DNA from: Chiloscyllium plagiosum
Lineage: Eukaryota
Reading direction: 5' to 3'
DNA length: 64,000 bases
Assembly: GCF_004010195.1 (NCBI RefSeq)
Contig: NC_057742.1
Coordinates: 21,696,287-21,760,286 of the forward strand
Part shown: in pieces, positions 5,730 to 62,690 of the stretch
Position numbering within the stretch: position 1 is the stretch's first letter
How the letters are laid out: each line of letters starts with the position of its first letter
Notes under the pieces: model-generated
What the model was told of the DNA's origin: nothing
Database searches by the model: none
The model's input: the letters and a program-made list of their open reading frames with translations, nothing else
Position numbers and translations under genes: made by a program

Positions 5730-5895
5730 ATCGAGAGTGTGTTTTGGGCATAAGCCCATCCATCATCCTGATGAAGAGTTTATGCCCGAAACATCAATTC
5801 TCCTGCTCCTTGGGTGCTGCCTGACCAGCTGTGCTTTTCCAGCATCATACTCTTGACTCTGATCCCCAGCTTCTGCAGTCCTCACTTTCTCCCAG
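5730..5895 (+). mobile_element. Short Penelope-derived (family A) element with degenerate hammerhead motif
   Basis: cctgatgaagagtttatgcccgaaacatc...tgctgcctgaccagctgtgcttttccagc...ctgcagtcctcactttctcc; same family as 49152. Confidence 0.8.
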
Positions 5896-6095
5896 AGCTC
5901 TATGAATGCTGAACTAATTAAATTCGAGGTCAGAAAATAGAAGAGGCGGGAAGTCTGCATGTGAAACTCAAAACTGCCATTTTATCCAAGTTAAAAATTT
6001 TAAAGTATTAAAAACATTTAAAAATATGAGGTCACATCAGTGTAAATTGCCAATATGAAAACAGTGCAAAGGGAATGGTTAAATGTCAGGTCGAA

Positions 6096-6109
6096 CCAGC
6101 AGATGGCAG
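6096..6109 (+). promoter_or_regulatory. CTCF-like motif
   Basis: CCAGCAGATGGCAG fits CCASYAGRKGGCRS, in repeat-free sequence. Confidence 0.35.
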
Positions 6110-7079
6110 AATACAGCTAAGGAGGGTGGTTTTGGCACACCATCCTCCTGTAATTAATTATAAATTGCAGCAGTGATCACCGACCAAGGCGAATTACATG
6201 TTGTTAATCATTTTTCTTTTAGAAAGCAAAAATTGTCCAGTAATTGATTTATAAAAAACAGTTTTCTGTTCAAGTTTATCATACATTTTAATTAAAAACC
6301 ATATTGCATCCAATTATGTTCAAATGTTGCTGGGACGATCATGTCATCCAACATGTAGCCTTTTAATTACCATATTACTCAAAATATATTACTGTGATGT
6401 TGCTATGCTTCACAGACCTTACTTCTAATATCCCAATGCTGAAAAGGCAATGAATTTCCATTCTATTTCCAAGGCATTTGAAAATAAAAAAATGACAGTA
6501 ATCTAGTAAGATGAGTCAATCATTTTGCCAGTTCTGGTAATAGAATTGTAACATATTGTGAACTAAAGTAATGATCTAAATGGTGGTAAAATAGCACGTG
6601 AATGAAATCTGCTTTAAATAAAAAGCTTCATTAAAATATCTGAGATCTGTGCAAAAATTGCATTTCATCATAAGTGCCACCATATAAAGGTGAGATAAAG
6701 AGCACAAGAATCAAGATCATTACCGAGGCAATTTCATTAAACAAGCTTGTCACAAACATTTGCAATTTATTTAAAAAGAAATCAATTGAAATAAATTAAT
6801 GTAATTAAATTTAGAACAGTTATGAGATTCAAATGATTGGTTTTTTTTAGTTAGCTCAAAATGGGCAATCAACGCATGCAACCATTAACCTTCATTCACA
6901 AAAACAGAAATTACTGGGAAAACTCAGCAAGTCTGGCAGCACCTGTGGAGAGAAATCAGAGTTAACGTTTTGAGTTGAGTGACCTTTCCTCCGAACTTTC
7001 ATTCTTTGCTGTGGGTGTTGCATCCAATCACTTTAGATAAATGTGAGATGCTGCATTTTGGAAAGGCAGGACTTATACA

Positions 7080-7239
7080 TGGAGCAGGAGAATCGACCTT
7101 TCGGGCATAAGCCCTTCATCAGGAACTTATGTCCAAAACGTCAATTCTCCTGCTCCTCAAATGCTGCCTGACTTGCTGTGCTTTTCCAACACCACACTCT
7201 CGACTCTGATCTCCAGCATGTGCGGTCCTCACTTTCTGC
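7080..7239. mobile_element. Family A mini-element with 13-bp TSD
   Basis: Flanked by caggacttataca at 7067-7079 and 7240-7252. Hammerhead-like core on the minus strand at 7095-7122. Confidence 0.85.
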
Positions 7240-7534: not shown

Positions 7535-8443
7535 ATTAGCGAGTTTTGAGAAGATTTGTAGCTCAGGTTGAGGTTCTGGATGTAGGTTTGCTTGCTGAAC
7601 TGGAAGGTTCGTTTTCAGATGTTTTGTCACCATACGAGGTAATATCTTCAGTGAGCCTCCAGATGAAGCACTGGTGGTATAGCCTGCTTTCTATTTATGT
7701 GTTTAGGTTTCCTTGGGTTGACGATATAATTTTCTGTGATAATGTCATTTCCTATGGTGATGCCATTTCTTGCTCTTTTTCTCAGGGAGTGGTAAATGTT
7801 GTCCAAGTCAATGTGTTTGTTGATAGAGTTCCGGTTGGAATACCATGCTTCTAGGAATTCGCGTGCATGCCTCTGTTTGGCTTGTCCTAGGATGGATGTG
7901 TTGTTCCAGTCGAAGTGGTGTCCTTCCTCGTCTGTATGTAAGGATACTAGTGATAGTGGGTTATGTCTTTTTGTGGCTAGTTGATGTTCATGTATCCTGT
8001 TCATGGCTAGTTTTCTAGAAAAGAACACGAGCCACCAGGATATATGAACACCAACTAGGCACAAAACAACATGACCCTCTCTCACATACAGATGCAGAAG
8101 GACACCACTTTGACTGGGACAACACATCCATCCTAGGACAAGCCAAACAGAGACATGCACAAGAATTCCTAGAAATATGGAATTCCAACTGGAACTCTAT
8201 AAACAAACACATTGACTTGGATCCCATTTACCACCCACTGAGAAAAAGAACAGGGAAATGGCATTACCACGGGAAATGACATCACCACAGGAACTGATAT
8301 CACTAACTGAAGGAAACCTAAACAAATAAATAGAAAGTGGGCCATACCACCAATGTTTCAGCTGGAGGCTCACTGATGATGTTACCTAATATGGTGACAA
8401 AACATCTGAAAATGAACCTTCCAGCTCAGCGAGCAAGTCTGCA
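7535..8443. mobile_element. Penelope-like (Poseidon-type) element with inverted 3' ends
   Basis: GIY-YIG C-terminal remnant RIHEHQLATKRH...AREFLEAW on both strands (inverted copies). TSD atttccaagg at 7525-7534 and 8444-8453. Confidence 0.88.
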
Positions 8444-11194
8444 ATTTCCAAGGGTGTTGCCAGGGTTGAAGGGTTTGAGTTAAAGGGAGAGGCTGATAAG
8501 ACTGGGGCTGTTTTCTCTGGAGTATCAGAGGCTAGGGAGTGACCTTATAGAGATTTATAACATCTTGAGGGACATGGATAGGGTAAATTGAAAAGGTCTT
8601 TTCCCTGGAGTGGGTGAGCCCAGAACTCAAGGGCATAGGTTTCGGGTGAGAGTGGAAATATTTAGAAGAGACCTAATGGGCAATGTTTTCATGCAGAGGG
8701 TGGTGTATGTATGAAATGAGCTGCCAAAGGAAGTGGTGGAGGCTGGTACAATTACAACTTTTAAAAGGCATCTGGATGGGTATACAAATAGGAAGTGTTT
8801 CAAGGGATATGGACCATGTGCTGCCAAATGGAACTAGATTAGGTTAGGATATCTGGTTGTCATGGACGAGTTTGACCGAAGGGTCAGTGCATCTCTATGA
8901 CTCTATCATTTAACTCCAATTCAGGATACAAGAATGGCACTGAGGATACCCAAACCCAAACTGTTAAAATTGACATCTGCTGTGGAATGTTAACATTTTT
9001 TTCGAGGATGGTATGAAGAACAACTGGGAAGAAAAGGGGGTCGGGAGTTGGTGATGTTCTGGACTGATGTGGGTGGAGAAGATATGTACTGCTGAATATG
9101 TTGTTCAAAGTTAATTTTGCTTCTCTCTTGGTCAACATTTCCCGCTTCCTTATTGTTGACAGTGTTAGATGGTGCAACACGTATCATTTTTTTCAGACTG
9201 ATGGTCAAGATCAACCACTCAGAGCTGAGATGTATCACTGATAATACATGGTGAATCTTATCCTTATCCTGTTCCAGAATTAGGTTTTCAATACAGCTTA
9301 TTGCCTGGTAAACCTTGGAGCTCTAATCTTTCCTCACGTAAGAAATCAATATCTTGTCTCTTGTCTCCATCTTTTGGCGATTTGAGTGTTTCTTTTGTAT
9401 CTTAAGTTGGACACAATTTTCAAACACGGTCTCATCAGAGCTGGTTAAACAAGCTCAAGAGTGTATTGTACCATCATAGTTATATTATACAAGTATTCAA
9501 TTTTCTTTATTAAATGCCTAACAGTTATTGGATAGGATACACTTTTGTCTTTATTGTGTCTGAAGGACTTTGTTTCCAAATATAACAAAAATAAAATTGT
9601 GCTTCTTACAGTACTACTTTGGGAATTCTCAAAATGAGTTGCTCTGAGCTTGTGGCTGCAGTAGTCACATGGTGACTGCAATCAGAGAAAGGGCACTGTC
9701 CCATATAACATCTTGGTATGATCATGGACGGATATGTATTTAAAACAAAGCAAAACAATTCAATTGTGATCTTAAACAGTTCAAAATCAGATGTTGTGCA
9801 GGGATACTGTGGGTGGTGAAAGTAGGGGTGTGGGAGTGTGGCGAGATGGGGAGATGAGAAACAAGGAAATGAAAGATAACAGCCTTTTCACCATGAACTC
9901 CATCCCATAACTAATAACACTGGCTGCTGTTGCCTACTGGGAAAGATTTGAGTAATCCAAAATTTGTGTAAATCCAAGCCCTTTGTGATAGCACTGTCTT
10001 GTGGCCATTTAGAGAAGAAACTGGTTCTCTTTGGAGTTGATTATATGTCTGTTGCGCACTCCATTTTAGTCTGTCCTGCAAGGATATCACAGCGTGATAC
10101 CAAAAGTCAGCAAAGCTCAATCAATGAGAGTCAACCAGAAAAATAATCTTGATTAAATCATGCAAAATGCTCCCCAGAGAAGAAATTCCTCCCCATCTCT
10201 ATCAGAAATGTGAGACACATAGTATTAACACTTTGCCACCTCGGTGACCCCAGAAATTTGCTCTCAGAATTTACCCTTCCTCATATTTCGATATTTCAAT
10301 AAGTATAAGTCCAAATGGCTCAAACTCCCTCAACAAAACAGCCCTTCATTGTTTTTCCAAGTCTATTAATAACCCCAGATCTCTTTCTAACTCCACCTTT
10401 AACTATACAATACATGGAGTATCAATGTCACTCATCGTTTCTTCTTATTGCTAATTTTAAAATTTCATGCGTCACTTCCCAACTTACTTATATAGTTTGT
10501 TAAATCTGGGTTTTGTAGATCTTGGGTTACCACTTCAGGTTGTATTCAGAGACTGATTCAAAGCAACTAATATAAATTAAATGGAACAGTGACCCAATAC
10601 TGATGAACGGAACACGGACAACCTTTGTCATTCTGACTAAATTACTGTCACATGTGCCTATGCCTCCTTTCCTTAACTTAGAAATAAGACCATAAGTTGT
10701 ATCTTTTGAAAAGACTAGGGACAATCAGCAAATTACTGGTTGTTATTTTCCCGTTGCCCTTTGCTTAAGTTGATCATATTATTCTTACTTTGAAATAGTG
10801 CAACATGTTAAAGCTGGTTTCATCTGGACAGCCACCAAAAGGATCTATTGGTCCAAGAACATGAATGAAGTACAGGAGACCAAAATAGACCTTGGCAGAT
10901 GCATGTACTCTGAAAGTTGAGCCAGATATGCAACCATTTACTAGGTGCCAATTGGAAAGACCTGGAGGAAAGTCAATTTCTTTCCTGAGAGAAAGCGAGA
11001 CCATTAAGTTGGTCAACATAGGCCATTTGTAGGCCTTGTAGCTGTCTTGTAGAACAGGAATTGCAGGGGCTGGAGTGGATTATCTTTTCCTCAGTTGGTG
11101 AATGAAGTAAAAATACTTTTTCTTAAAGAAAGTTGAGATTGAAAGAACAACTATTATGAAGAATTTAAATTGTAAACGGGGAGGGAGGGGGAAA

Positions 11195-11372
11195 CTAGGA
11201 ATCCTCCAACCACAAGGGATGAATGCAGATTTCTCCAGATTCCTCATTTCCCCTCCCCCCCACCTTATCTCAGTCCCTACCCTTGGACTCAGCACCACCA
11301 CGTCGATTCTCCTGTTCCTTGGATGCTGCCTGACCTGCTGCGCTTTTCCAGCAACACATTTTTCAGCTCTTG
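11195..11372 (+). mobile_element. Neptune-type Penelope 3' remnant (family A)
   Basis: LGILQPQGMNADFS endonuclease C-terminus followed by the family A terminus gattctcctgttccttggatgctgcctgacc. Confidence 0.75.
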
Positions 11373-11879
11373 ACACTAAAAGGGATAACAAAGACAGAAA
11401 TTGCTGGAGAAACCCAGTAGATCTGGCAGCATCAACGGAGAGAAAGCAGAGTTAATGTTTCAGATTCAGTCACCTTTCTTTGGAAGAGGCATTATCCTTT
11501 GCTTTTTTTTTCAAAAAAGGGCAAGATTGATGCTAAATATTGTCAGACCTAGGTAGATCAGAAAAGATAAGAAAGGAAATTGAGAAGGAGAATTGGCAAT
11601 AATGAATAGAGAGAATATTGGAGTACTGGAGACAGAGATGTCCTAGAGAGAGATTGAAGATAATTTCTTAGTTAGAGCTTAGAAAAAATAGAGGCTAAAG
11701 GGCAGAGAGAGGCTAAAAAGAGTGCATTCATTAGAATTTTTGGGATCATACATTTGCAACACAGCTAGAAAGGAGAAATTGCAGGTTCTGAATTGGGAAA
11801 ATGAGTTGTGTTAAGCAGAACAAATGCCAGTTGAGAAACATTAAATAGGCTATGATCATAATATCAAAAAAGCTAATTT

Positions 11880-13211: not shown

Positions 13212-13415
13212 GGAAGTCAGAAGTCACAGAACACAAGGTTGTAGTCCAACAGGTTTATTTGAAATCACAAGCTTTCAGAGCACTGCTCTTTCATCTTCAC
13301 CTGACAAAGGAGCAGCGCTCCGAATGCTTGTGATTTCAAATCAACCTGTTGGATTATAACCTGATGTCTTGTGACTTCTGACTTTGTCCATCCCAATCCA
13401 ACACTGGCACCTACG
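13212..13415. mobile_element. Palindromic mini-element, family B variant
   Basis: Inverted arms agtcagaagtcac...ccaacaggttt / aacctgttgg...gtgacttctgact around cacctgacaaaggagcagcgctccgaa. Confidence 0.8.
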
Positions 13416-13713: not shown

Positions 13714-13919
13714 CAAAGTTAAAAATCACACAACACCAGGTTATAGTCCAACAGGTTTATTTGGAAGCACTAGCTTTTGGAGCACTCCTCTTTCATCAGA
13801 TGACGAAGGAGTGGCATTCCGAAAGCTAGTGCTTCCAAATAAACCTGTTGGACTATACCTGGTGTTGTGTGATTTTTAACTTTGTGCACTCCATTCCAAC
13901 ACCGGCACCTCCAAATCAT
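13714..13919. mobile_element. Palindromic mini-element, family B
   Basis: Near-perfect ~85-bp inverted arms (caaagttaaaaatcacacaacaccagg... / ...cctggtgttgtgtgatttttaactttg) with hammerhead-like cores at the centre. Confidence 0.85.
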
Positions 13920-14344
13920 GACAGTATATACAAATGTTTTTTGCATCTATTAAACAAAGGGCTCTATGTATTTATGTATGTATTTTACAGCAAACACCCA
14001 CATTGTGAATCCGATTGACAATCCTAAAGCAGTGAAATTCCTTACACATTCAGGATGATCTAGAAATTGCTCGTTAGATACAGTCAGCACCTTGCTTGTT
14101 GCCAATGACTGAAGGCCACATTTGCTGCAATTTTTCCTGCCACTGTGCAGACCTCAAAGGACCATGCATGGCAGCGACGTCTGGAACTGGAAGTCAATGT
14201 GACAGCAGGTTAATCATGGAACCTCTAAGCCGCTGCACAGCTTTCTGAAAACATAGGCTGCAGATACATGCTATTTGTTATGATCCACCAATCTTTGGGA
14301 CCTACAGCCTACGTACCTGGCATCACATTGGCACTGGAATTCAT

Positions 14345-14438
14345 TCCTGATGAAGAGCTTTTGCCCGAAACGTCGATTTTCTTGCTCCTCGGATGCTGCC
14401 TGACCTGCTGTGCTTTTCCAGCGCCACTCTGATCTAAT
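14345..14438 (+). mobile_element. ~95-bp family A insertion consisting almost only of the hammerhead plus terminus, 13-bp TSD
   Basis: TSD cactggaattcat at 14332-14344 and 14439-14451. Core ctgatgaagagcttttgcccgaaacgtc at 14347-14374. Confidence 0.85.
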
Positions 14439-19150: not shown

Positions 19151-21416
19151 AGTGTCTTTTTAAACAGACCAACTGCAGTGTGGGGAATTTCCATGAATAA
19201 GTATCCCTTGTTGCTTATGTTAAATGGCTGTTTCGATCAATTGGCTGTTTAAATGGACTTTGTTTCATATGGGATTCGGAAGTTTGGATGAAAGAAATGG
19301 AATTAAAATTCTGGACTCTAAGCAGTTTGGAATTAATCCTTTCAAGAACAAAAAAAAGATTCAATTTAACAAATTAAATTCTGCATTGAATGGCTCAGAA
19401 CAGAAAACATTAAATAGCTTTTACACTGCATTTGGAAATGTCACTGTAATCATATTTTTTTTTTACTCTTGATGTGGACTAAAATGGGAAAAGGATTGTT
19501 TTTCAGTCAAGGATTATGGAAAGAATTGCTGCACTCTTAAATATAAGCTACATTGTGAGATATATTTACACCTTTGTTTTGTAAGCAATAGAAGAAGAGA
19601 GATATGACTCTTGGCATCAGGGTGTACGAGCAGAAAGAGATTCACCCTGTGAGAAATTGCTGATTGGTTTGGGTAATTGTGATCCATTCTGGATGCCCAA
19701 GTCATCAGCCTAATGACGTATCTCCAATTGGTTGCTGGGCGGGTAAATGGTTTGAGAGCTGATGATGGAGGCAGAAAAGCTTCCTGACTGCTGAAAGAGC
19801 AGGTACGGTGGCTTTATCTCTCTACAGTAAACTAACTGAAGCCTGAAGATTTATTTTCTCTCATCAGTTCCTGTAAGCTTTTGTCCTTAGCCAGTAACTA
19901 ACAGTCTTTATAATTAATGGAGCAGTCCCTCTGTGTCTCCTGCAAAAACGTGAAAGAATCTGATAAAGGAGGTTAGGAAACATAATGTCTTCAGAAGCAA
20001 AAGGAACATCTCATCAGTCCTGGCCTATATTTTTCTATTTTTGCCTCCATATATAACACCTTTGGTTTGTTTACCTCCATATTTACATATAGGGGTTTTG
20101 AAGGGTTAGTGTTTCAACTAGCAGAGTTCGGTGTTGACAGTTCATAGTTTAGTTTATCTGTTGCTAGTGCTTGTTTATTTTTAATAAATAGCAATTCTTA
20201 GTAATTACGCTACTGTCAGTGTTCTCAATCATTCTGAGTTCATCTGACAGGTAAATTGTAGCCTTTGCCTACTTTGACTAACAAATAATCAAAACAAATA
20301 AATTTAAAGATTATAAACTTCCTCCTTTGATCAAATACAAAGTTACCAAAAAATAGATTAGGAGCATATTACAGATCAGAAAATGAGGACTAAGAAACTG
20401 ATTTGTTTAGAAATGGAGAATATGAATGTAAATTAGCAAACAATGTGAAAACAGGCTGCAGCTATGTAAAAAGGAGCAGATGAGCCAAGGCAAATGTGGG
20501 TTCAATTCAGGCAAATTCAGAATAATATATACAATGGGAAATAAGGCAATTGCAAAGAAGCTAAATAATTACTTTGTGCCTGCCTTAATGGAAGATGCAA
20601 AAATAAACTTCAGAAATGTTAATCTAAAGGACCAAGTGAGAATAAAGAGTGGGAAGTAATATGATCCGATGGTCCTAATTGCTCTGGGGCAATGAAATTA
20701 TCAAAAAGTCAGATCCACAAGATGGCGGCAGCCAAGCAAGCAGCATTTGGGTGCCTGTGCACTGGCTTGACCTTCTTGTCTGCATTTTTCTTTTTCCCTT
20801 TCTCCTTTTACCCCATTACCCTTGATCTCCATCTATCCATCGCATTCCCAGTTACCTTCCACCCAGTCTCACTCCCCCCTACCCCCTATTTGGGCTTATG
20901 CCTGAAACGCGACTGTTCTACTCCTCAGATGCTGCCTGACCTGCTGTGCTTTTCCAGCGCCATACTCTCAACGCTGATCTCCAGCATCTGTAGTCCTCAC
21001 ATTCTCCCTGCTTCTGCTTTAGTAAAGTATTACTTGGTAGCAAAGAGAGATCTATATAGCCAGGTTCATGTTGAATATCCTTTATTATCATGTACATTCA
21101 GTTTAAAATACAGTGAAAAGTGTGTACTGTCACTTGTACACAGCGCCATTCACAGAATAAATTTTTTTAAAACTTCAGAATTGAGGCCTACCGGTGCTGG
21201 GCCACACCCCCACATATCGCATCTGAGTGACACGCATCGAGTGGGTGTGGAGCTGGGTTAACTGTTTGCACGCCAAGCAACCTTGTTAATGAGAAAACAA
21301 AACTTCACAAGAAACACTCAGATTTTGGAGCTTTTCAGATTTTGAGATTTCAGATAAAAGATTGTCTACCTGTACAACATTTCCATCTCCGCATACTGCC
21401 ACCAGTGTTCCCGCTC

Positions 21417-23124: not shown

Positions 23125-23745
23125 CTCCACATCCCTCCCATTTATCTCTCAGTCCACTTGGGCCACCCACTCATTCCTGATGAAGAGTTTATGCTCAAAA
23201 CATCAACTCTCCTGACCAGCTGTGCTTTTCTAGCACCACAATCTTCAAATTTGATCTCCAGCACATGCAGTCCTCACTTTCTGCTAGTTGATGATAACCT
23301 TCCTGCGAATCCTCTTCCAAGGATGCCTACCTTGAAGAATTTCTATGCCTCCTTCTACAAGGATCTCAGTGAGTCTCTCTCTCACTGCACCCATCAGGTC
23401 ATCTCCTCTGTTCTGAAGCTCTTCAGCCTCATCTCCCCTCCCCTCAACTTATCCCAGATCCAAACTTCCAACTCAGCACTGCCCTCTTGAACTATCCTGT
23501 CCATCTTCCTTCCCACCTATTCGCTCCACCTCCTCTCCGATCTATCATCTTCACCCCGACCTTCATCTACCTATGCATTTCTAGCTACCTTCCTCCCAGA
23601 CCCAACCCCCTCCCATTTATCTCTCAGCCACCTTGGGCCACCTTTTCATTCCTGATGAAGAGCCTATGTTTGAAACATCGACTGTCCTGCTCCTCGCATG
23701 CTGCCTGATCGGCTGTGCTTTTCCAGCACCTCACTCTTTGACTCT
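23125..23745 (+). mobile_element. Penelope family A tandem terminal repeats (pLTR-like)
   Basis: Two copies of ctcccatttatctctcag...cattcctgatgaagag...gaaacatc...tgtgcttttc at about 23135 and 23610. Confidence 0.75.
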
Positions 23746-24774
23746 AAAGCAGAAGCAGTCTTTGTTTTACTAACACAATAAAACGGAAGTCTATCCCCCT
23801 CAAAAATAGAGATAAACAAGAAAAAGTAATTCTATTCCATTCAAACACTGATTTAATTATTTTAAATACACAGGAATAACTCAAGTTGTCTTTATAGATT
23901 GAACAAAACAATAGTTTTATTATAGGGGTCAGTACATCTTAGAAAATTGTATGAACATAATTGTTATTCTAAGAACATCTAGTGCAGTACCTTTAGCAAG
24001 ATCCAGTCCAGCTCATTTCTAAGGGAGCAAGACTTTTCTTTCAATGAGCTTGATGCAATTTGAATTTGAAGTCATCATTGGAACTGTAGATAACTCTGTG
24101 CTCCTGACTTAGCTTTCTTGTAGTGCTATACTATCCCTTACACAGCCTCAATTCCTTTTCAATTAAAACAAACTTCAAAAGCTTAATTATTTTCTTCTCT
24201 ACCAACTGTATCCCAACACTCTGGTTTTGGATAAATAATAACATTGTGTGTTAAGTAATTTCATTATTTTAAACCCCATAGAAACACAACATAGCACATG
24301 TTACTCCATCAAATGACTTTTCAGCTCTGTGGAGCATAATAAATGCTTTTCTCTAAAATAACTTCCCAATACAGAATAAAATGAAATTCGGAGTTTGAAT
24401 TGGAAAATAGACATAATGCACCTGGGTGCCCAATTTTCCAAGGTTTGATTTCAATGGAGCAAACAATCAATACAACAGACCCGAAAACCTTACCTAATTG
24501 AGATATGCACAGATTTTGGGCTGAATCTTATGTTTTTCATGACTAAGTCAGAATTGCACTGATTTTTAAGTTTTTCTGTCTCACGAAGATGGAATGGAGA
24601 ATGGCAAAGAAATAGATCTGGTCAACTTTTATGTTTTCCTTAAAGCAAATTGCTGCTACTATATTAATTTTTTTGTGCACAGTAAGCATTCTCTCCTTGT
24701 CTTTCGATTATGATGTGATTTACACCACCATATTTCTGTTGTCACCCACTAGTTAGATATAGTATAAGTTGTCA

Positions 24775-24866
24775 AAAAGTGTGGCATTGGAAAAGTACAG
24801 CAGGTCCGGCAGCATCCGAGGAGCAGGAGAACCGACGTTTCGCGTATAAGCCCTTCTTCAGGAATG
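24775..24866 (-). mobile_element. Family A mini-element
   Basis: Minus strand cctgaagaagggcttatacgcgaaacgtc followed by the family terminus. Confidence 0.8.
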
Positions 24867-25082
24867 TCACTACCAAAATCCAAGAAGCTAGCAACTCCTT
24901 GGGCATTCACAATGCATGTGAAAAATTGGATAAGAAGAAATTCATGAGCAATTGTGACTCCGATGATGCTCCATTATATATATCTATAATAGAATTAATA
25001 ATCAAACTATGTCATCTTGAGATCAATCTTTTATGCCATGGTGCACTAACGGGAATGTTGCAAGAAACCTTCATTTCTTCTT

Positions 25083-25258
25083 GATTTGGAGGTGCTGGTG
25101 TTGGACTGGGGTGTACAAAGTTAAAAATCACACAATACCAGGTCATGGTCCAACAGGTATATACTCCACAACCACCCTATGAAGGGGCAGTGCTCCGAAA
25201 GCTAGTGCTTCCAAATAAACCTGTTGGATGATAACCTGGTGTTGTGTGATTTTTAACT
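25083..25258. mobile_element. Palindromic mini-element, family B
   Basis: gttaaaaatcacacaataccagg ... cctggtgttgtgtgatttttaac. Confidence 0.8.
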
Positions 25259-26540: not shown

Positions 26541-28299
26541 TATCAAGGATGAGTTTAAGAGTAAGTGTTGGCCAAGTGTGCAGTTAGGTCTATATGCTTA
26601 TTTTGACTAACAAAGAGGTGAAGGAAGGTAGTAAATTTATTTTTTAAAAAACTTTAGAAAATACTATGGCATGAAATTCTAACAGCTTCTCAAATAATAC
26701 TTTAAAAATTTTTTGACAACTTAAAAATAGCATGAAATCTTAACATATACTAATGCCCTACTAGGATTGAAGTATAAACAGAATTCTGTCCTCTGAGTTG
26801 AGTGGTTTTTCACTAAAAACATTAAATAATCAACTTTATTTTGCTGAATGACCATTTTCAAATGTGATAGGTAACATATTCACTCATTCTCTAAAACAAG
26901 ATCTACCTTTCTTTGGGTTTATTGGTTTAACAAAGGGGTGTGCATCGGCATCCATGGTAGGATTAGACGGATTGTAAAATCAGCATTGAATAATGATTAT
27001 GTAGTTATACAAATAAATAATTTCCACAGAAAAGGGAACCTACTTAGTCAAAAGCAGTAGCTCAAAACTTCTAGCATGGATTTGGTGGAGCTTTTCTACC
27101 ATAGATACTTGAACACTTAGTATCATTACCGAATAAATGCTATGTCCAATAGTCGAAAAGAAATAGAAAAACACACCTGGAATAAATTTGATAAAATTAG
27201 GAATGGAGTTTTGGAGAGTGGGGGAAAGTCTCCATTGTTAATGGAGGCAAAGGGATCACCACTGAAGACCAAACCTATTAACTGTGATACCTTACCCGAC
27301 TCTGCTACCCTCACCCTGTGTGACCAAAAGGTATTTACTCTGTTTCTGTTTAATCCTGATTTTCCAGTGATGAATCCAGCCAGACGCTGCTGATGGGATC
27401 TAGTGTAAAGGTTTATGATGCAATAAGACGTTTAACAGTCAGCTCTTCAATGGTTGCCTGGAGCTTGATCAGCTTCCCCACTGGTGGAGTCAGTCAGCCC
27501 TGAAGATGCTCACCCCATACGTAATACTCTAAATCTTGCCTGATGTTCCATGTGCACTTTTTGCCCATCCTTTCAAGTGTGATTACATACTGAGGGAGTC
27601 AGGCATTATCAATCCAGCAATTAGAGTCTAACATGCCTGAGATTAGCAGTAAATCAGTCAGGAACTGCTGGGGGATTGACTGGAATCTGGTGAATCATCA
27701 GTCTGTGTTGACGTTCCAAATCAATAAGAGATTTGGGAGACTATCAGCCACAGGAGTATGTACACTACAAGTCAAAGGATTGTTATTACAGACTAGAATT
27801 ATGTGGGTAGAGTGGGGTTGGTTGGGGGGCCGGGGAGGTGGTGGTAGTGTGAAGTTAGGGAAATCAAATGCAAGGGTACAAAGGGACACATCTCAACAGA
27901 TGTCTCCCTTATAAGGCTGGGAACACATGGAGAACTGTGGTGGTCAGCTGTTGCTCATCACCACAATCCTGGTTTCACTCAAGAGTCAATGTGCCACTGT
28001 GGTAGATCTGGGACATGGGGTTAAATGAGAGAGATAAAGAGTTAAATAAGAGGAATGGTTTGTAAAGTTGGGAGGCTGAAACCTGATGGGGTTCACAGAC
28101 AATGCAATACAGAAAGGTTAAGGTTGGTGTGGAGGGCATGAGAATAGCAGGTGAAGATGGTAGCTTATTCTCTGGAATGCTAGATGTGATGCCACCTTTA
28201 TCTGAATCACAATGAAAATGAAAAATGGCTACCAGCAAATCCAGACTGGATACAGTAAACATGTGATGTGGAGGACACTGTCACCTTTTGCTATAAATT

Positions 28300-48600: not shown

Positions 48601-51600
48601 TACACAAAGCCAGATTTACAAAGTAGACCCAATACGGCCTCTTTCTGCTTAAGACATACTTTAAATTCAACTTTCAGATGGAAAACAGTACTTCACCCTT
48701 CCAGCCTCTTTTATAAAGTTCAACTGTCTGAGTGACACTACAGTCTAGAAAGTTCAGGCGTCAAAGCAGGAAATACGAAACTACTTACTACTCTCTCACT
48801 TCCTCACAAAGCATTAATAAAATTGAATTGAGGTTTAGTGACTGAAAATTAACACTGTTTTGAGTTCTAGGGATACAGAATTCACTTCAGGAGACTGTAG
48901 GACACAATGAATTTAACATTCAAAACTGTAATGCTTCTCAGGAATGTTTTTCTGTACCAAAACAGACTGTAATTGTGGAATTATGTCTATCAAACTATAA
49001 TGAAACAATGGCAATCAAATTTGTCAGTAATTTAATGATAGTGAGTGGATTAATAGGCTCTCACATTTCACTATGCATAAGACATATTGCACTGGCTTTT
49101 ACAATCAAGAAAGGCATAATCCAAATATGAGAAGGTATTTATATAAATAAGAGCTGAAAATGTGTTGCTGGAAAAGCGCAGCAGATCAGGCAGCATCCAA
49201 GGAACAGGAGAATCGACGTTTCGGGCATAAGCCTGAAGAAGGGCTTATGCCTGAAACGTCGATTCTCCTGTTCCTTGGATGCTGCCTGACCTGCTGTGCT
49301 TTTCCAGCAACACATTTTCAGCTCTGATCTCCAGCATCTGCAGCCCTCACTTTCCCATTTATATAAATAAGTCTCATAACTTAAGTGGGGGAAAGTTCAC
49401 AGTATAGTTTACACAGTTCCAGTTGGATAACTGTCAGATAATTGAAACAGGATACATCAGCTTATATAGGTCAACTCATATCATGACCAAACATATTTAA
49501 CCAGATGGCCAGTTTTAGTAACACCCTTCTAATATTGTCACAAGCATAAAGCTAGCATCACTGAGGTGGATGGAAAACATTTCAATATTGCACAATATTA
49601 TTTGTCCTGCATTGAAAATTTACTGCTTTGAAGAAGCCACACATAAGAGACACATTATTCGAGGAGATTCTCTCACTTGTATGACCATCTTTTGTGTGGC
49701 TACTCACCAGCTTTGGACTAACTGAACGGAAGGTGTGCCAAGTAGCCGGTCTGGGAGGAGATTGATTTCCTTCATAATATTAGAGAGTCTCACAGGCAGC
49801 TCTTGCCTCAGAAACATAAAGGAGGTCTTCTCACAGGCATTTGTTGAGCCTAAGTGGATAAGAATGCAACACTGTACTTAAATGCCAAGTTTCAACAACT
49901 TCCACCCAATTTTATTCCCTTCCAAAAATAATAAGAATTATGCTACAACTCAGTTCCATTGTGCTTGCAACTCATAATAACATGCCTGATGCATGCAATT
50001 TAATGTTGTCCTCACTTGATGTCCAAACACACACTGGAGGCTATGATTTATTTGCTGTTACGTTTGCTTAATTCTGTTTTCTGTCCTCATACTTTTACTC
50101 CAACTCTTGTCCACGCATGGAGCTGGTTTGATGGCATGAAGCATCAGCACATGATTTAATTTGGGAATACGGCAAATTAAATTCCACTCTTGAATCCCAA
50201 GGGCATGTGATGCAGGAAATCTCAAGTATCAAATGCACACTGGTATGTACACAGTTTGAGTAGGAAAACTCAAGCTATCGGTATTTAGTGTCCTGGGTCA
50301 GAAACACGCAAGATTCTACATAATACTTCTTGCTTTGAGTTTGATGTCAATGATGTCATAGAAAAAGGACACATCTCCCAGAGAGGGAGAAACTGATTAT
50401 AACTAAGACCATCTCCTGGGAATGTAGCTGATCTTCCTTAATAAATATTTATATATGTGTGTATGTGATGAAGTTAAGTATGCATACTTCATATTGGGGA
50501 AAAAAATCTGTGTATTGCTTATTGGGAAAATTGCAATTTTTGGAACAGTTGTAAGGGCAGATTCTGAAAGAAATGTCAAACTGGTAGCCGCTATAATCAC
50601 AGAAACAAGTTTGCTCACAGTTAACGAAGAAGTTATACTTCCTCTTACCCAGTGTGCTTTTGCAAGCCTGATTAACCAAATTATAGCTAATTCTCCATGT
50701 TAATATCAATATTAAACGGAAAGATCTATGTACCCAGTAAAAGGTTTCTGCAAACTAAAGAGGCATGGGTCTGGAAGCTCCTTTCCCTCCCTTTACCATA
50801 GTTAGATGAATTAATATTCAATAATCAAATAAGATTTTTTGACAGCTTTGAGTGATTGAATAACAGATAGAGGGCAGTTGAGGCTCAACGACCATAAACT
50901 AAAAAGAAACAGTGTGTTTCAAAATCCCAATTAAAATCCAATGACCTTATGGCAGGAGATGGCTATGTGATCTCTTCTACATTTACAATGGTATTTACAT
51001 AATACCACATACAACAACTTTCATTTACGTCATCTAAACATCCCAAAAACATTCCACAGTACCCAAATAATTAGTACAAAGCGCTGTGCTGCAGGAAACA
51101 GCAGAGGTTTGCAGGAGGAAAATTCAAACAAAACAACAGCTAAAGCATCATCAACTTGTGGAGGAATGAAAACCATGCTGTGGCGAATGGTCCCATCCTG
51201 GATAGATCAATGACTATCTCGCATAGGTGACAAGAGATAATTACTACTGCAACTTGGTAAATCAATTCCGTCAATGTCATCATCACCTGAATCAAATCTC
51301 TGTTCCTTGTGTATTCTTTGTTCTTGAACGAACTGTGTTTCTATTTTCAGCTGCTTTCTAGTTAAAACTACACAACTGTTGAGAATGCAATGTATTTAAT
51401 GTACCATTGCGGTTCATAGAAAACGCTGGGAAAATGTTTCTTATTTTCTGAAAGTAAGGTTCAATGGACTTAGAATGATAGGTTAGATGTTTAAGATTGA
51501 GACGAGGACAAATTCCATTCAGTGGATTATGAATCTTGGAAATTCTATACCTTTGTATTAGTATATTCAAGAAGAAAAATAAAATTAACAGATTTTTCAA

Positions 51601-54600
51601 TACTGAAGGAATCTATGGATATGGAGAAAGCACACAACAGATTCATGGAGAAAGTTTAGGCCCTGGAATAAAAGGGACAGTGGTAATGTGCATACAAAAC
51701 TAGCTGAATGATAGGAAAGAGAGAGTTATGATGATACATTAAACATATTGAGTTGTTTACCTTGGAGACAGGAGGGCTAAGAGATATTCAAAATGATCAG
51801 TGGGTTGGATAGAGTGGATAGCATGAAGCTCGTAGAAGGTGTAAGAATGAGAGGGTATAGATTTAAAGCAATTTGTAAAAGAAGCATATGTGGTAAGGGA
51901 ATAAAACTTTCTACACAATGAGTAGCTAGGATATGGAACCAGGGTGTAAGTTTGCTCGCTGAGCTGGTAGATTTATTCTCAGATGTTTCGTCACCATGCA
52001 ATCTAATCATGCTGGATCCAAAACACCCCATTTCTATGGATTACCAAAAGGTACATAAACAAGTGGCTCCCCCTTAGACCCATTGTCTCACTTCCTGGTA
52101 CACCGACATACAGACTGGCAAAGGAACTGCAACTCATACAAACAAACAACTCATAGAAGACCCAAGCCACTCCATCTGCTCCACCCAGAAATTCCTTAAC
52201 AAAGACACCAATGTAGAGGATGACGAGGTCATAGTTTCCTTCAACGTGACGGCCCTATTCACATCAATAAATATCACCCCAGCCAAATAAACACTGGCTT
52301 CACTGCTAGACGAATCAAGGTTACAAATGCCTGACAGCACCAACTTCATCAGCAAGGATAGCATCCTCAAACTAGTAGACTTGTGCCTCACAACCTACTT
52401 CACCTTCACCAACAAAATCTCAAACAAATCAATGGGATGTCTATGGGATGCCAATATCAGAACTCTCAGCAGAAGTAGTTATGCAGAAGTTAGAACAAAC
52501 AGCTCTTCCCATGATCCAGCCCAAGCTTTGGGTCCACTATGTGGATGACATCTTTATCATCACAAAATGCAAAAAATTCAAAGAAACCCACATATCCATA
52601 AACAACATCTTTACTGCTATAAAGCTCACCAAAGAAAGACGACAAGAACAATAACACACTCTCCTTCCTAAAAGGTCACAATAGAATGAAGAGCCAATGG
52701 AGAACTGCAGATCAGCGTCTACAGGAAAGTCTCACACACTGACCAGATACTTAACTACATGTGCAATCATCCCAACACCCACAAACGAGGATGCATCAGG
52801 ACATTATTTAAATGGGCCACAACACACTGCAGCACCAAGGAGTTTGAGAAGCCAAGGAAAAACACCGACAACATATTAAGGAACAATGGGTACCCAATCG
52901 CAGTCCACAGATTCCTACACAATAGACCTCAACAACAAGACACAACATGCTCAGAAGCTCTTAGCTATCCTGCCACACATTCAACACATCACTGAGATGA
53001 CAATCATACTACTCTGGCCCCTTGGCATCATGGTAGCTCACACACCTACCACCAAGCTGAAAGAGTTCCTGATGAATTTAAAGAACCCTGTACCAGAACA
53101 AACATCATATAAAAAAATACCCTGCAAGGACTGCAACAAACATTACATTGGACAGACAGGCAGGAAACTAGTCACTAGAATACATGAGCACCACCAAAAG
53201 ACAAGGCCAACTATCACTAATATCCATACACACAGACAAAGAGGGAAACCAGGTTGACTGGGACAATAGATCCATCCTGGGACATGCTAAACAAAGACAC
53301 ATACAAGAATTCCCAGAGGCCTGGCATTCAAACGGGAACTCCATTAACATATCAATTTGGACCCCATTTACTAACCTCTCAGAAAAAGAATCAGGTATGA
53401 TCATCACCCACCACAACAGACCAAGACACACAAATAACAAGCACGGTAGAATACCAGCATTCATTGGAGGCTCACTGATGAGGTTACCGAGCATGGTGAT
53501 GAAATGTCTGAGAACAAATCTACCAGCTCAGCAAGCAAACTTACAACCTGATCCACAATCTGAGCTACAAACCTCTAAAATCACAAAATGTATTGCCTCA
53601 AAGTGCGGTAGAGGCAGGTTCAACTGAAACGTTTAAGAGGGCATTAGATGATTATTTGGAGAGAAATAAATTGCAAGGCTATGGGAGGCAAAGCAGGACA
53701 CCGGTACGAGGTAATGATGCTAATTTGAAGAGCTGGTGCAGGTATGTTGGGCTGCTTGGTCTCCTTTTGTATAGTAACACTTCTGGGATTCTGTGAAGTG
53801 CAACAGAATGTAAAAATGTGGCTTGACCAAACATTTATGTTAGAAGGTAGCAAGGGAAAATGAAGGTAAATCCATATTTTAAAAGGAAACATTTACAGGG
53901 CTATAACAGGGGTACAAATGAGAGGGAACAGCAGAACAAACAATGCTGAATTCTTCACATCTATCATCCTATGAATTTAACCTATCTCCATTCATTGTAT
54001 TGAGTTAGAAGCCACCTTAGGCAATTATGTCTTAAAAGATGTTAATCAAATTTAATTAACTTCCACTAGAACATCTTTTTAAAAAAGAAACTGCTCAAAC
54101 ATGATGTGACACATCTCTGGGATTGGAGAGACCCATCCCAGTTTTTTTTAAGATTAGATTACATTACATTACAGTGTGGAAACAGGCCCTTGGGCCCAAG
54201 TCCACACCGACCCGCCGAAGTGCAACCCACCCATAGCCCTACATTTACCCCTTACCTAACACTACGGGCAATTTAGCATGGCCAATTCACCTGACCTGCA
54301 CATCTTTGGACTGTGGGAAGAAACCGGAGCACCCGGAGGAAACCCACGCAGACACGGGGAGAACGTGCAAACTCCACACAGTCAGTCGCCTGAGGCGGGA
54401 ATTGAACCCGGGTCTCCGGGTTCTTCTGGCTCAACCACAGGGCACGTTACCATTACACCAAAACATCCTGATTGGAAAATAAATACCAGCATTAAGCATG
54501 CAAAGTCAGCTAATCAGGACCAGTCTGTCCTGAATGTTTGAATTTCTTGACTTTTAGCAATCTTAGAGATGCGCCAACCTTTGGCGCAAGTTTTTCAGGA

Positions 54601-57599: not shown

Positions 57600-59790
57600 C
57601 CTCCTGCCCACATGACTAAAAATGCATAACATTAGGGGTCAGGCAAAGATAGGGTTGGTCCTAGAAATTAGAATCCTAATCGCTATGGAAGAAGAGACTG
57701 TGGAACTGACAAGGAGGTTGGTGGCCAATCCATTGCTGATATTAAAGCTAGAATATCAATGACGATATTTACAGCCTGCTTTTCAAAACTGGGCATAAGG
57801 ATTCAGACATGGTACGATGATGTGGAAAGAGAATGTCCATAACCATTAGTTAATTTTTGTTATGCAGCTACTTAATCATGATAAATGGAAATAAACAATC
57901 TGCAGCAAGCCCAACCTTTGCCTCCGAGGATAAAACAAACCAGGAGGAATTACACCATCACATCATTATCCTGCACTCTCTACCAATGTAGAGACATTCA
58001 GTTCAGTGGTTATGATTTCACAGATAAACTTGAGGTCATAATTTAGTGAAGGTACCACTAAGATATCCCCATACCTGAGGGCCCCAGTAATCAGAGGGTA
58101 TTTTGAAACCAGGTCCATGTTTAGACCCAATTCTGGAAACAGTTGTAAGATACTTCATAAAGAAGCAAATACTGTTAGGGGAACAGCTCGTAGAGATGTG
58201 GGGAGGCCATGCACAACCTTGAGAAAATGTTGAATAAGTCCATTTGTGTCCACAGTTCTGTCGTTCCAGTACCTGAGAACATGGCATACTTTCTGGTACA
58301 GTTAGTGACCATCAGGGAGTGTCTAGCACAGCATTCAGTGCTGCCATATTCCGCCACGGGGTTTAAACAAAAGTGACTTGGTTATGAAAGGGCGAAGCAC
58401 CTTGATCTCTCTCCAGGCTGCCCAACTCCATCTGACATCTGTGAGATGCAACATGCACCAGAGAGGATCCATGGGTGAGCTACTGCTCCTCCTTCACTCT
58501 CCCAGTGACCTCATCATCGACAGTAGGTGAAGCTGAAGTTGGTGCAACTGCACATATACAGGAAACCCCTCAGCAGGCTGAAGATCTAAGCCTGAGCCAT
58601 TGGATGATGAAAGTCAAGGTCATCTCAGGTAGTGGGACAAAGCAATCAACAGGCTGCTTCCAACTCATTTGCGGATGTAAGGATAACCATCAAAACATAG
58701 TATTGGAAAAGTAAGATAAAAAAAACTAATAGCTCAAAGTGTTGATTTTTTCCATGAATATTATATGTCATATAAATGTATAGTTTAAATTATTTTATTC
58801 ATGTATGTTGAATGGAATTGTTATTATGTTAACAGTTGTACAAATTGATAGGTACACTTAAGGACATGACGCAAATGGACAATCAATGATGGCGCTATGG
58901 AAATATCAATCATTGTGTAAAATCTGAAGTGGTGGGATCTCAAAATCATCTAGTTCAGATTTCACTTTTGCGTAACCTTTCTCAAGCCAGAGTTTAGAAA
59001 CCAACTGGCAAGCCAGCAGGCACTTTTCATCAGTTTATCATCCATCAAAGGCTAATATCTAAATAGCTTCTGTAGTTGTGACATTGTTGTATTTCAGGTG
59101 ACTGCATGAATGTAAAGAGTTTCTACAAAGCATTGAGACATACAAAGCATGCGAGGGAATCTGCAGCACTCTTCCTTCTGGGTACTAGAGGTCACAGATT
59201 GGTCCAAACGAAATATGCCAGATCCATAGACATTTTCATCACAACATTTGTTGGAGGTAAGATCGGACATTGGGCAAGATCATTCTATCTGGCATCTTCC
59301 ATTGACATTGCATCAGCAGTATAGCTATGTCATACACTCCCTTAGACTCTTTACCTTCCTCACTTGAAGAGACATCCAGCTGCTCCATCTCCCTGTTGGA
59401 CAATTTCATATCCTTTTGTTGCATAGGAATTTGGAGGGTGCTGCAAGTCATAATGATTCATGAGAATCTGAGATGTACTCTAATGCTCCACTGAAGTGAG
59501 CCAAGCAGTGGAACCTAATCTTCAGTGTTCCAGTGTTGCCTTCAAGCCATAGGAGGCATTGAACGTATACTCTTAAGGCTTTTTGGAATCTGCATAGTTG
59601 TCATGAGCCAGATCTTCACAGGGTACTCCTTTTTCCAAAGAGCATCCCTCATAATTGTTGAGGGAAGCAAGCAGTTGTGGCACCTGAGTATGACAGAAAG
59701 TAGGAGAGACAATTGGAAAGCAAGCGCATCTGCTGGGCTTGTTCGTGGTGGTCACTCAAGAACAGCACATATTTTCTCCCAATCATTTAA
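57600..59790. mobile_element. Fossil PIF/Harbinger DNA transposon: transposase remnant (minus) and possible Myb/SANT partner remnant (plus)
   Basis: Minus 59300-59780 reads, across frameshifts, GKKEYPVKIWLMT...FNASY...LKIRFHCL..SGALEY...IIMTCSTL (cf. DDE_Tnp_4 GDxGYPLxxWLMTP..FN..H..LKxRFRCL..GGxLxY..CCxLHN). Plus ~57627 reads HNIRGQAKIG...IRILIAMEEETVEL. Confidence 0.6.
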
Positions 59791-59839
59791 TTCATGATGA
59801 CCACAAAATGATTCCAAACAACTCATAGTACAACACATA

Positions 59840-62690
59840 TTGTTAGGGCTTGGATGGAGAGGAATTTGTTACGTTTTTGCAAGAAAATGTTCTTATTAGT
59901 ATGTGGATATACATACTGGAGAAGGTATAAAACATGACCTACTCTTGGGAAATACGGCATGGTAGGTGACCAAGCTATTAATAGGGCAAGTGATCATAAT
60001 TCTAGTAGTTTTAAAATAGTGATGGAAAAGAATAGACAGGATCTAAAATTTGAAGGTATAAACTGGAGGAAGGCCAATTTTGATTGTATTAAGCAAGAAC
60101 TTTCAAAAGTTGATTGGGGGCAGATGTTCATAGGTAAAGGTGCAGCCAGAAAATCGAAAGCTTTCAAAAATGAGACAAGAGTCCAGAGACAATATTTTTC
60201 TGTTAGAGTGAAGGGCAAGGCTGATAGGTGTGAGGAATGCCGGATGACAAGAGAAATTGAGTTTTTGGTTAAGATAAGAAGGAAGCATATGTCAGGTATT
60301 GACAGCAGAGTTCAAGTGAATCCCTCAAAGAGTATAAAGGCAATTGTTATATACTTAGGAGGGAAATCAGAAGGGCAAAAAGGGGGCATGAGTTAGCTTT
60401 GGCAAATAGAATTAAGGAGAATCCAAAGGATGTTACAAATACATTAAGAATAAAAGGCTAACTCGGGAGAGAATAGGGCCCCTTAATGATCAGCAAGACC
60501 ACCTATATGTGGAACCGCAGGAGATCGAGGAGATACTAAATAAGTATTTTGCATCAGTGTTTATTATGGAGAAGGATATGGAAGCTAGAGAACTGAGTGG
60601 GAAAATAAATAGCGACATCTTGAAAAATGTCCATAGTACAGAGGAAGTGGTGCTGGATGCATCAGGGTGGATAAATCCCTTGGACTTGATCAGGTATAAG
60701 CTGAAAAATGTGTTGCTGGAAAAGCGCAGCAGGTCAGGCAGCATCCAAGGAGCAGGAGGAAATGAGGAAGCTGGAGAAATCTGCATTCATCCCTTGTGAT
60801 TAGAGGGTTCCTAAGCGGAAGATGAGGCGCTCTTCCTCCAGGCGTCGTGTTGCCATGGTCTGGCAATGGAGGAGGCCAAGGACCTGCAAGTCCTTGGCAG
60901 AGTGGGAGGGGGAGTTAAAGTGTTCCGCCACGGGGTGGTTGGGTTGGTTGGTGCGGGTCACCATCACCTTAACCTCCTTCCACCTATCGCATTCCCAACG
61001 CTCCTCCCCCACGTCCCTTCTCCCTACCTTTTATCTTAGCCTGCTTGGCACACCTTCCTCATTCCTGAAGAAGGGCTTATGCCCGAAACATTGATTCTCC
61101 TGCTCCTTGGATGCTGCCTGACCTGCTGCGCTTTTCCAGCAACACATTTTTCAGCTCTGATCTCCAGCATTTGCAGTCCTCACTTTCTCCTACTTGATCA
61201 GGTGTACCCTAGAATTCTGTAGGAAGCTAGGGAAGTGATTGCTGGGCCCCTTGTTGAGATATTTATATCATCGATAGCCGCAGGTGAGGTGCTGGAAAAC
61301 TGGATGTTGGCTAACATGGTGTCGCTATTTAAGAAAGGTGTAAGGAAAAGCCAGGGTACTATAGACCGGTGAGCCTGGCATCAGTGTTAGGCAAGTTGTT
61401 GGAGGGAATCCTGAGGGACAGGGCTTACATGTATATGGAAAGGCAAGGACTGATTAGGGATAGTCAATGTAGCTTTGTGTCTGGGAAATTGTGTTTCACT
61501 AACTGGATTGAGTTTTTTGAAGAAGTAACAAAGAGGATTGGTGAGGGTAGAGCGGTGAATGTGATCTATATTGACTTCAGTAAGGCAATCAACAAGATTC
61601 ATCATGGTAGACAGGTTAGCAAGATTAGATCTCGTGGAATACAGAGAGTACTGGTTCAAAGGTAGCAGACAGAGGATGGTGGTGGTGGGTTTCTTTTCAG
61701 ACTGGAGACCTGTGATCAGTGGTATGCCACAAGGATCACTGCCAGAGCCACTCCTTTTCATCATTAATATAAATGATTTGGATGTCAACCTAGGAGATAT
61801 GGTTAGTAAGTTTGCAGATGACGCCAAATTGGAGCTAAACTGGACAGCAAAGAAGGTTACCTCAGAGTACACCAGAATCTTGATCATATGGGGCAATGGG
61901 CTGATGAATAGCAGATGAAGTTTAATTTAGATAAATGATAGGTGCTGCATTTTGCAAAGACAAATTAGAAGTAATATCCTTAATGGTAAGGTCCTGGGAG
62001 TGTTGCTGAACAGAGACATTGGAGTGCAGGTTCATAGCTCCTTGAAAGTGGAGGCGCAGGCAGTTAGAATAGTAGAGAAAACATTTGGTATGCTTGCCTG
62101 TATTTGTCAGTGCATTGAGTATAGGAGTTGAGAGGTCATGTTGCAACTGTACAGGATATTCGTTAGGCCATTATTGGAACACTGTGTGCAATTCTGGTCT
62201 CCCTGCTTTAGAAAGGGTGTTGTGAAACTTAAAAGAGTTCAGAAAAGACTTACAAGGATGTTTCCAGGGTTGGAGGGTTTGAGCTATAGGGAGAGGCTGA
62301 ATAGACTGGGGCTATTTTCCCTGGAGTGTCGGAGGCTGAGGAGTGACCTTATATAAAATCATGGGAGGCATGGATAGGGTAAATAGACATCTTTTTCCCG
62401 GGGTGGGGGAGTCCAAAACTAGAGAGCATAGTTTTAACGTGAGAGTGGAAAGACTTAAAAGGGATCTAAGGGGCAACTTTTTCACACAGAGGGTTGTGCA
62501 TGTATGGAATGAGTTGCCAGAGGAAGTGGTGGAGACATTTAAAAGACATCTGAATGGGTATATGAATAAGAAGAGTTTAGAGGGATGTGGGCCAAATGCT
62601 GGCAAATGGGACTAGATTCATTTGGGATATCTTATTGATATGGACACGTTGGACCAAAGAGTATGTTTCTGTGCTGTATATCTCTATGAA
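59840..62690 (+). mobile_element. CR1 LINE ORF2 remnant (endonuclease C-terminus through RT to 3' tail)
   Basis: SDHNS, NWRKANF, LNKYFASVF, GYYRPVSLASV, DFSKA, GMPQGS, FADDAKL, RPLLEHCVQFWSP. Confidence 0.93.
60696..61191. mobile_element. Neptune-type Penelope fragment with family A inverted termini, 12-bp TSD
   Basis: Minus ORF HPVAEHFNSPSH...LEEERLIFRLGTL. TSD acttgatcaggt at 60684-60695 and 61192-61203. Hammerhead core at 61065-61092. Confidence 0.88.

Follow-up and report, generated by a model that had tools for sequence, protein, structure and literature searches.

Fish Xena, Poseidon and Neptune elements carry minimal hammerhead ribozymes, which are of type I and lack helix III (Cervera and De la Pena 2014, PMC4209133). 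That work and a review (PMC6765202) describe them as unable to fold in monomeric form and as cleaving only weakly when dimeric. The hammerhead of the anole Poseidon element PAc is described as cutting only with protein, and its mutants did not affect insertion in vitro; PAc uses uncleaved RNA as template, initiates reverse transcription (RT) internally, and brings about cleavage and extension on both strands of the target (Frangieh et al. 2024, PMC11167929). A CX2-5CxxC linker is reported to mark Neptune (and Nematis) and to be absent in Poseidon, the GIY-YIG endonuclease being C-terminal (Craig et al. 2021, PMC8557442), and a rotifer Penelope-like terminal repeat (pLTR) carries a TATA box and an initiator (Inr)-like motif (Arkhipova et al. 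2013, PMC3846280). Animal non-long-terminal-repeat retrozymes, which are non-coding, hammerhead-bearing pLTR derivatives, are reported with one chondrichthyan genome among their hosts (Li et al., bioRxiv 10.64898/2026.07.22.740005). Here, we analyze a 64,000-nucleotide stretch of the genome of the shark Chiloscyllium plagiosum (NC_057742.1, positions 21,696,287 to 21,760,286; the window), through which hammerhead-like motifs are scattered. We are fairly confident in a model in which these motifs are minimal type I hammerhead folds in Penelope-like pLTRs, selected in source elements and carried by copies that decay neutrally, with the short copies deriving from uncleaved RNA that likely begins at the ribozyme.

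A first-pass annotation of the window reported more than a dozen such motifs in three families, A, B and C. All 16 sites are present, at most 1–3 bases from the positions assigned to them, and the family patterns had no match in three mononucleotide shuffles of the window with up to 8 mismatches allowed. The description of these motifs as keeping their core and palindrome and a paired stem II holds for some of them: both core boxes and the UH cleavage doublet are intact at 9 of 16 sites, the core together with a fully paired stem II at 5 (7122-, 23652, 49233, 53475 and 61065), and all of these plus the palindromic tetramer at 1 (49233), while a fully intact motif including helix I occurs at none. 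The copy at 49233 has lost helix I to its inverted arm and sits inside an 87-bp inverted repeat (long hairpin z = -16.7). The number of families was an underestimate, and we worked with 16 subfamily patterns. A library similarity search found 28 pLTR ends in the window, including other partial copies and members of a group D (Table 1) that, like helix I, had been overlooked. An Rfam scan of the window returned 13 matches at E ≤ 10, with hammerhead families absent, and a Pfam search of 30 stop-to-stop window frames found no GIY-YIG domain, only a long interspersed element (LINE)-type reverse transcriptase, an esterase and a weak APH match.

To place the window in its genome (3.56 Gb), we sampled 140 stretches of 10 kb at round-number positions on large contigs only, two of which flank the window. 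A strict minimal-hammerhead descriptor with a C3-G8 core, the kind of search that the first-pass annotation had called for, gave 93 matches in 1,342,927 bases, compared with 1, 0, 1, 1 and 2 in five order-4 Markov control sequences. Of these matches, 88 belong to clusters with several members; the other 5, each standing alone, look by eye like family A or D. By similarity search, the 138 non-flanking stretches (1,324,752 bases) contain 394 ends, comprising 214 of A, 82 of D, 77 of B and 21 of C. This density of ~300 ends per Mb corresponds to an estimated one million ends genome-wide, roughly, with the arms of inverted pairs counted singly; with 28 ends in 64 kb, the window is thus ordinary for its genome. 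The motifs could in principle be chance look-alikes, short core words in ordinary repeats that carry no selected RNA structure, as might be suspected from the missing Rfam hammerhead match in the window and from the broken state of the majority of copies. We consider this extremely improbable. It is already contradicted by the control counts and by covariation: the motif occupies the same position in lineages of ~30% protein identity, and helix I, stem II and the 3-8 pair all show two-sided changes.

The fold is well defined at the level of subfamilies. Across the 16 majority lines, the core is invariant save in D2 and in CpG-decayed B2, and the two core boxes and the UH doublet stand in type I order in all lines except B2. 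Stem II (4–6 bp) is opened by a G10.1-C11.1 pair and preceded by one extra base after position 9 (extra-base mismatch 0–6%), helix I has 2–4 bp, and helix III is replaced by a palindromic 15.1-16.1 tetramer, with one palindrome in the A, D2 and C majority lines and a different one in those of B. Covariation among the family consensuses, an analysis also proposed beforehand, is evident on both sides of helix I and stem II. Each of A3, D, D2, B and C has its own 3–4 bp duplex as helix I; the third pair of this helix changes from C-G to U-A in B and takes U-A, G-C and C-G in C, and the fourth pair of stem II changes from C-G to U-A in A4. Exact genomic copies of D2 are U3-A8 in 885 cases, C3-A8 in 20, C3-G8 in 1 and U3-G8 in 6, the last two of these patterns being 2 bases shorter. 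The fixation of U3-A8 in D2, together with the covariation between subfamilies, argues for selection on source elements. A second origin of U3-A8 in family B, suggested by one copy and by a query-biased search, was rejected, as only 1 of 73 exact B2 copies has this pair and the rest are C3-G8 forms and CpG decay products of these.

Genomic copies decay neutrally after insertion, and most are dead. Many had been described as CpG-decayed, in agreement with our finding that CpG core positions (including G12) are changed in 19–45% of cases and non-CpG core positions in 4.5–10%. The core is intact in 115 of the 225 sampled copies that cover it; 92 retain stem II as well, and 63 have the palindrome in addition to both. 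It had been suggested that core positions no more conserved than their flanks would speak against a ribozyme. Because copies decay neutrally after insertion, this test is ill-posed, and the values obtained for core and flank decay among copies (4.5 versus 7.9% in A, 6.9 versus 6.9% in B) are uninformative.

Long copies extend back, on the same strand, into Penelope-like open reading frames (ORFs). GIY-YIG frames lie 240–960 bases upstream of A, B and C motifs, confirming the physical linkage to GIY-YIG remnants proposed for A and C and extending it to B, for which the first-pass annotation had noted none. A family B frame matches RVT_1 (E = 6e-8), and the GIY-YIG and RT matches for A and C are weak. 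In A and B, a CX4CxxC linker precedes the GIY-YIG domain, whereas family C has a C-terminal GIY-YIG domain without the linker finger. A Neptune-type endonuclease lies upstream of D2 at 3 of 20 loci; the endonuclease preceding D and D2 resembles that of A, in frames seen from GIY-YIG onwards only, and the downstream repeat is common to A, D and D2. Endonuclease identity is 29–33% between A and B and 27–37% to C, the latter over short stretches. By these features, the copies sort into one Poseidon-type lineage of Penelope-like retrotransposons (C) and no fewer than two that are Neptune-type (A with D; B), each with subfamilies. The earlier suggestion of three unrelated lineages is therefore right in that there are several, but A and B, both Neptune-type by their linker, are distantly related by endonuclease identity. 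Taken together, the fold features and the ORF linkage support the identification of the motifs as minimal type I hammerheads in pLTRs.

Every ORF that we encountered is broken (intact full-length copies were not sought), and the three extended B loci inspected for a tandem pLTR-ORF-pLTR arrangement are 5'-truncated, with no upstream sense pLTR. None of the window's 12 tandem repeats is a head-to-tail array with complete hammerheads, and the sampled copies are solo or head-to-head. A short head-to-tail micro-array does occur in one sampled stretch (L117, near 4343), where a 33-base piece of subfamily A4 lies behind the hammerhead. In the A/D pLTR, the region from ~+45 to +95 of the core shows partial self-complementarity, and no other stretch common to A, D and D2 is as well conserved; it is a candidate protein-binding or RT-start hairpin.

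The most informative feature of the copies may be where they begin. Counted from the first core base in 19-base bins from -50 to +44, the 5' ends of 373 Neptune-type copies number 11, 8, 156, 58 and 49, with the peak at -12 to +6 (p = 3e-29); in the subfamilies whose upstream sequence is well known (220 copies), equal bins hold 7, 5, 89, 34 and 18. Copies that start at the cut site could record cleavage in vivo, but this candidate was rejected for lack of enrichment: 10 of 394 ends fall within 1 base of the cut site, against a local background of 2.6–3.3 per base, and the cut-site starts inspected by eye are mostly decayed CpG ends or deletions. In a few cases (window position 11300 and sampled stretches L188 and L132), endonuclease or 3' untranslated region (UTR) is joined at or near the cut site by internal deletion.

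The 5' edge differs between families, and the TATA box moves with it. The median 5' end is -7 in B (n = 25) and -3 in A and D together (n = 98), 4 bases further upstream in B (p = 0.0007). The TATA box, located by eye, starts at -36 in D2, at -35 in three long D copies, at -40 in B1 and at about -47 to -53 in C, so that in B and D/D2 it precedes the 5' edge by ~31 bases and shifts with it. This arrangement points to uncleaved RNA that begins at the ribozyme as the likely template, and we lean slightly towards the hammerhead's 5' edge as the place where transcription starts. On a D2 copy, depth in contigs of a related organism steps up 4 bases before the core. Edge copies are preceded by either unique flank or an inverted arm: 145 of 394 ends (37%) belong to short head-to-head pairs, and 69 of 158 edge copies are non-inverted and pile up at the same edge. 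The 3' ends form two classes ~35 bases apart, the upper class lying near the 3' limit of the library. In D2 inverted pairs (L236-L264), both arms carry the palindromic helix I strand, and 0–15 bases of templated-looking filler from neighbouring sequence are present.

These observations can be accommodated in a mechanism in which cutting by the hammerheads would require dimers or the aid of protein, and the RNA would likely begin at helix I, the ribozyme's own first helix. Reverse transcription would start 85–125 bases behind the core and run off the 5' end of the uncleaved RNA, generating short copies, and a head-to-head pair would consist of two such complementary DNAs (cDNAs) joined at one target. 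To the suggestion that each pair represents two cDNAs synthesized at the same target and linked through microhomology we give not quite even odds. The dimer requirement, low activity, protein-assisted cleavage, internal initiation and cleavage of both target strands are taken from published work and not from this analysis.

Several results weigh against this model, some concerning the ribozyme and its lineages and others the transcription start. The clade names Neptune and Poseidon are assigned from the linker motif only. In 8 of 8 natural copies the predicted active dimer is not the most stable fold, its energy exceeding the co-fold minimum by 7–21 kcal/mol, and the monomer folds no better than shuffles in 5 of 7. 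The commonest A subfamilies (A1, A2 and A5) have a helix I of only 2 perfect pairs plus a mismatch. Exact cut-site starts, although few (7 of 394), leave room for a rare use of cleaved RNA. A reading of these data that departs from ours is that the elements are the same, but the fold persists as a signal, whether structural or protein-binding, or is a relic, remains uncut in vivo, and piles up 5' ends by stalling or fold-back. The weak predicted dimers and 2-bp helix I are in keeping with this reading, as are the lack of excess 5' ends at the cut site and the absence of an RNA end pile-up. In the anole element, too, cleavage is reported as dispensable for insertion in vitro, with no RNA-sequencing ends at the site (PMC11167929), and Naiads are described as thriving without hammerheads (PMC8557442). 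Nonetheless, catalysis requires features of the kind retained here, namely the compensatory U3-A8 pair fixed in D2 and, in every lineage, the UH doublet and palindrome; a stalling hairpin would place ends at its 3' foot and not 5' of the core; and the 5' peak moves with the TATA box. We therefore regard a fold that is never cut as rather unlikely. The high dimer energies agree with the weak dimer cleavage in the literature, and intact subfamily forms probably cleave under some condition.

With respect to the transcription start, a canonical TATA box is missing from family A, which shows just a conserved T-rich motif at ~-36. The 5' peak is broad (0–8 bases) and not a single base, junctions show no excess of an extra, cap-derived G, in small numbers, and family C offers 4 short copies, too few for a 5' end test. 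RNA reads from the related organism (2,851 and 254) reveal no position at which molecules start or finish in numbers, the predicted start and the cut site included, a weak test given the fragmented poly(A) library; a strand bias among the reads upstream of D2 probably reflects internal oligo-dT priming. Junction palindromes of inverted rotifer pLTRs have been attributed to antisense self-priming (PMC3846280), and the 5' edge could accordingly reflect self-priming on an antisense template, or else a splice acceptor, instead of a transcription start. A pyrimidine run and AG precede the D2 core, an intron of D. virilis Penelope is reported to end at helix I (PMC4209133), and the 145 ends with an inverted partner would suit self-priming. 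However, the 68 non-inverted edge copies examined for a spliced short exon share no exon-like upstream sequence, D2 arms mostly retain the AG (the mode is at 4 bases upstream, with 20 of the 49 inverted arms), and non-inverted copies share the edge pile-up. On balance, splicing or self-priming seems an unlikely origin of the edge.

Combining these points, we tentatively suggest that a TATA promoter may start Neptune-type RNA at the first hammerhead pair, that the template would remain uncut, and that the element's protein would make solo and head-to-head stubs from its first 85–125 bases by the hundred thousand; the U3-A8 swap fixed in D2 would then show that the core is selected for some other step, such as uncapping or regulating surplus tandem transcripts. 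This combined picture is a little less probable than its opposite in our estimation. If it is true, the genome keeps a record, at base resolution, of the template's 5' end, which argues against cleaved or circular monomers as the main template.

The copies found in the window are listed in Table 1. The window also contains features that are separate from the pLTR ends. Inverted arms of ~270 bases at 22840-23115 and 26274-26540, 92–95% complementary, enclose 3.2 kb with several pLTR copies and may represent a DNA-transposon-like element or a young inverted pair. A GC-rich tandem array of ~20 units of 46 bases (74% matches) occupies 21404-22334. At 240-818 (-), a 192-amino-acid frame matches a GDSL/SGNH esterase (E=1.5e-13), presumably of the kind found in ORF1 proteins of some LINEs, and a 154-base tandem duplication lies at 723-1032. 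A LINE-type RT fragment (E=1.3e-6) lies at 61333-61662 (+), and LINE 3' regions are repeated in both orientations at 8446-8888, 14892-15560 and 62012-62689. A short interspersed element (SINE)-like family with a tRNA-like head, which we take to resemble elasmobranch SINEs, occurs at 43109-43291, 46410-46480, 54197-54419 and 62718-62974, with one pair 96% alike over 223 bases.

Table 1. Penelope-like terminal repeat copies and element remnants in the window (strand "." marks pairs with arms on both strands).
Feature	Position	Strand	Remarks
Family A short pLTR copy	5739..5892	+	Hammerhead 5768-5795, stem II broken; short decayed head-to-head partner 5739-5766 (-)
Group D pLTR copy	6898..6997	-	Begins 4 bases before core
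Family A hammerhead	7095..7122	-	Core and stem II intact, palindrome broken
Arm head-to-head with the 7095..7122 hammerhead	7126-7237	+	Begins inside stem II
Family C (Poseidon-type) 3' ends, head-to-head pair	7544..8445	.	C-terminal endonuclease remnants; hammerheads 7618-7651 (-) and 8373-8406 (+), G12 lost in both through CpG decay
Family A fragment	11300..11370	+	Behind Neptune-type endonuclease C-terminus; hammerhead 5' half deleted
Group D pLTR copy	11389..11480	-	Decayed
Subfamily B2 head-to-head pair	13214..13412	.	Hammerheads 13269-13297 (-) truncated, 13301-13329 (+) dead core
Subfamily B1 head-to-head pair	13714..13918	.	Hammerheads 13771-13799 (-), 13800-13828 (+); junction is the core's 5' edge
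Family A copy	14343..14437	+	Hammerhead 14347-14374; begins 4 bases before core; one stem II mismatch
Family A copy	20892..21006	+	Without 5' core box
Family A copy	23134..23282	+	Hammerhead 23177-23204, G12 lost
Family A copy	23431..23745	+	~240 bases of 3' UTR; hammerhead 23652-23679
Family A copy	24767..24869	-	Hammerhead 24834-24861, stem II broken
Family B head-to-head pair	25082..25258	.	Hammerhead 25176-25204 (+), 5' core box damaged; - arm 25082-25162
Family B copy	28275..28404	+	TATA box upstream at ~28292; hammerhead 28320-28348, core intact, one stem II mismatch
Group D head-to-head pair, old	39313..39499	.	Decayed
Family A head-to-head pair	49147..49354	.	87-base arms 95% complementary; hammerhead 49233-49260 (+), best-preserved in window
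Family C element remnant	51940..53574	+	Pieces of RT and GIY-YIG at 52400-53400; hammerhead at 53475-53508; short arm in inverted orientation at 51940-51999 (-)
Family A element end	60699..61189	+	~300 bases upstream of hammerhead 61065-61092; inverted arm 60699-60758 (-)

Much of what we describe has precedents. Several minimal hammerhead families per genome, solo and opposite-strand copies, the U3-A8 pair, inverted pLTRs with tails and pLTR TATA/Inr motifs are in print already, in the portions of the literature covered here, and multiple hammerhead families per genome are the expected case in Penelope-like elements. Our literature search found no shark report of these families, with the caveat that the alignments of Lunse et al. 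and some supplements lay outside the search and could include cartilaginous fish; nor did it find work joining TATA box, hammerhead and 5' ends. Within the text portion and two supplementary files of PMC4209133 that were searched (supplementary file 1 lay outside the search), no cartilaginous fish is named. Our study adds a natural experiment on the role of the hammerhead, in that 5' ends can be dated in their hundreds and these ends shun the cut site but follow the TATA box. It also identifies D2 as a young subfamily with a compensated core that is suited to bench tests, and ~190,000 short genomic palindromes (an estimate from the 145 of 394 paired ends) that would yield double-stranded RNA on read-through.

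Compared with the minimal hammerheads as described in PMC4209133, the motifs here share the palindromic 15.2-16.2 positions, the extra base between 9 and 10.1, and the G10.1-C11.1 pair, as well as several consensus families per genome, a majority of solo copies of truncated elements, and close opposite-strand pairs. The U3-A8 pair appears there as a Schistosoma variant, and here in a vertebrate Neptune-type subfamily, D2. The copy number estimated here, about one million, stands against 4,000–9,000 descriptor matches in coelacanth and Xenopus in the same source, by counting methods that differ. Family C is like the anole element PAc in its Poseidon-type ORF, the ATG at the start of the stem II region and the hammerhead in the pLTR, and the 3' end classes seen here resemble the tail and two RT starts of PAc (PMC11167929). 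In the portion of that biochemical study covered here, the positions of genomic 5' ends are not compared with ribozyme or promoter, and A, B and D here are Neptune-type. The retrozymes are described as head-to-tail tandem arrays (bioRxiv 10.64898/2026.07.22.740005), whereas the copies here are solo or head-to-head and are tied to ORFs in longer copies. Drosophila Penelope is reported to use a TATA-less internal promoter (PMC2377424). Common to these copies and known Neptune, Penelope and Poseidon elements are 5' truncation, an adjacent inverted copy and a 30–40 base tail (PMC8557442; PMC3846280). What sets the shark copies apart is that 37% of ends lie in short head-to-head pairs and that the 5' boundary is concentrated at the ribozyme edge.

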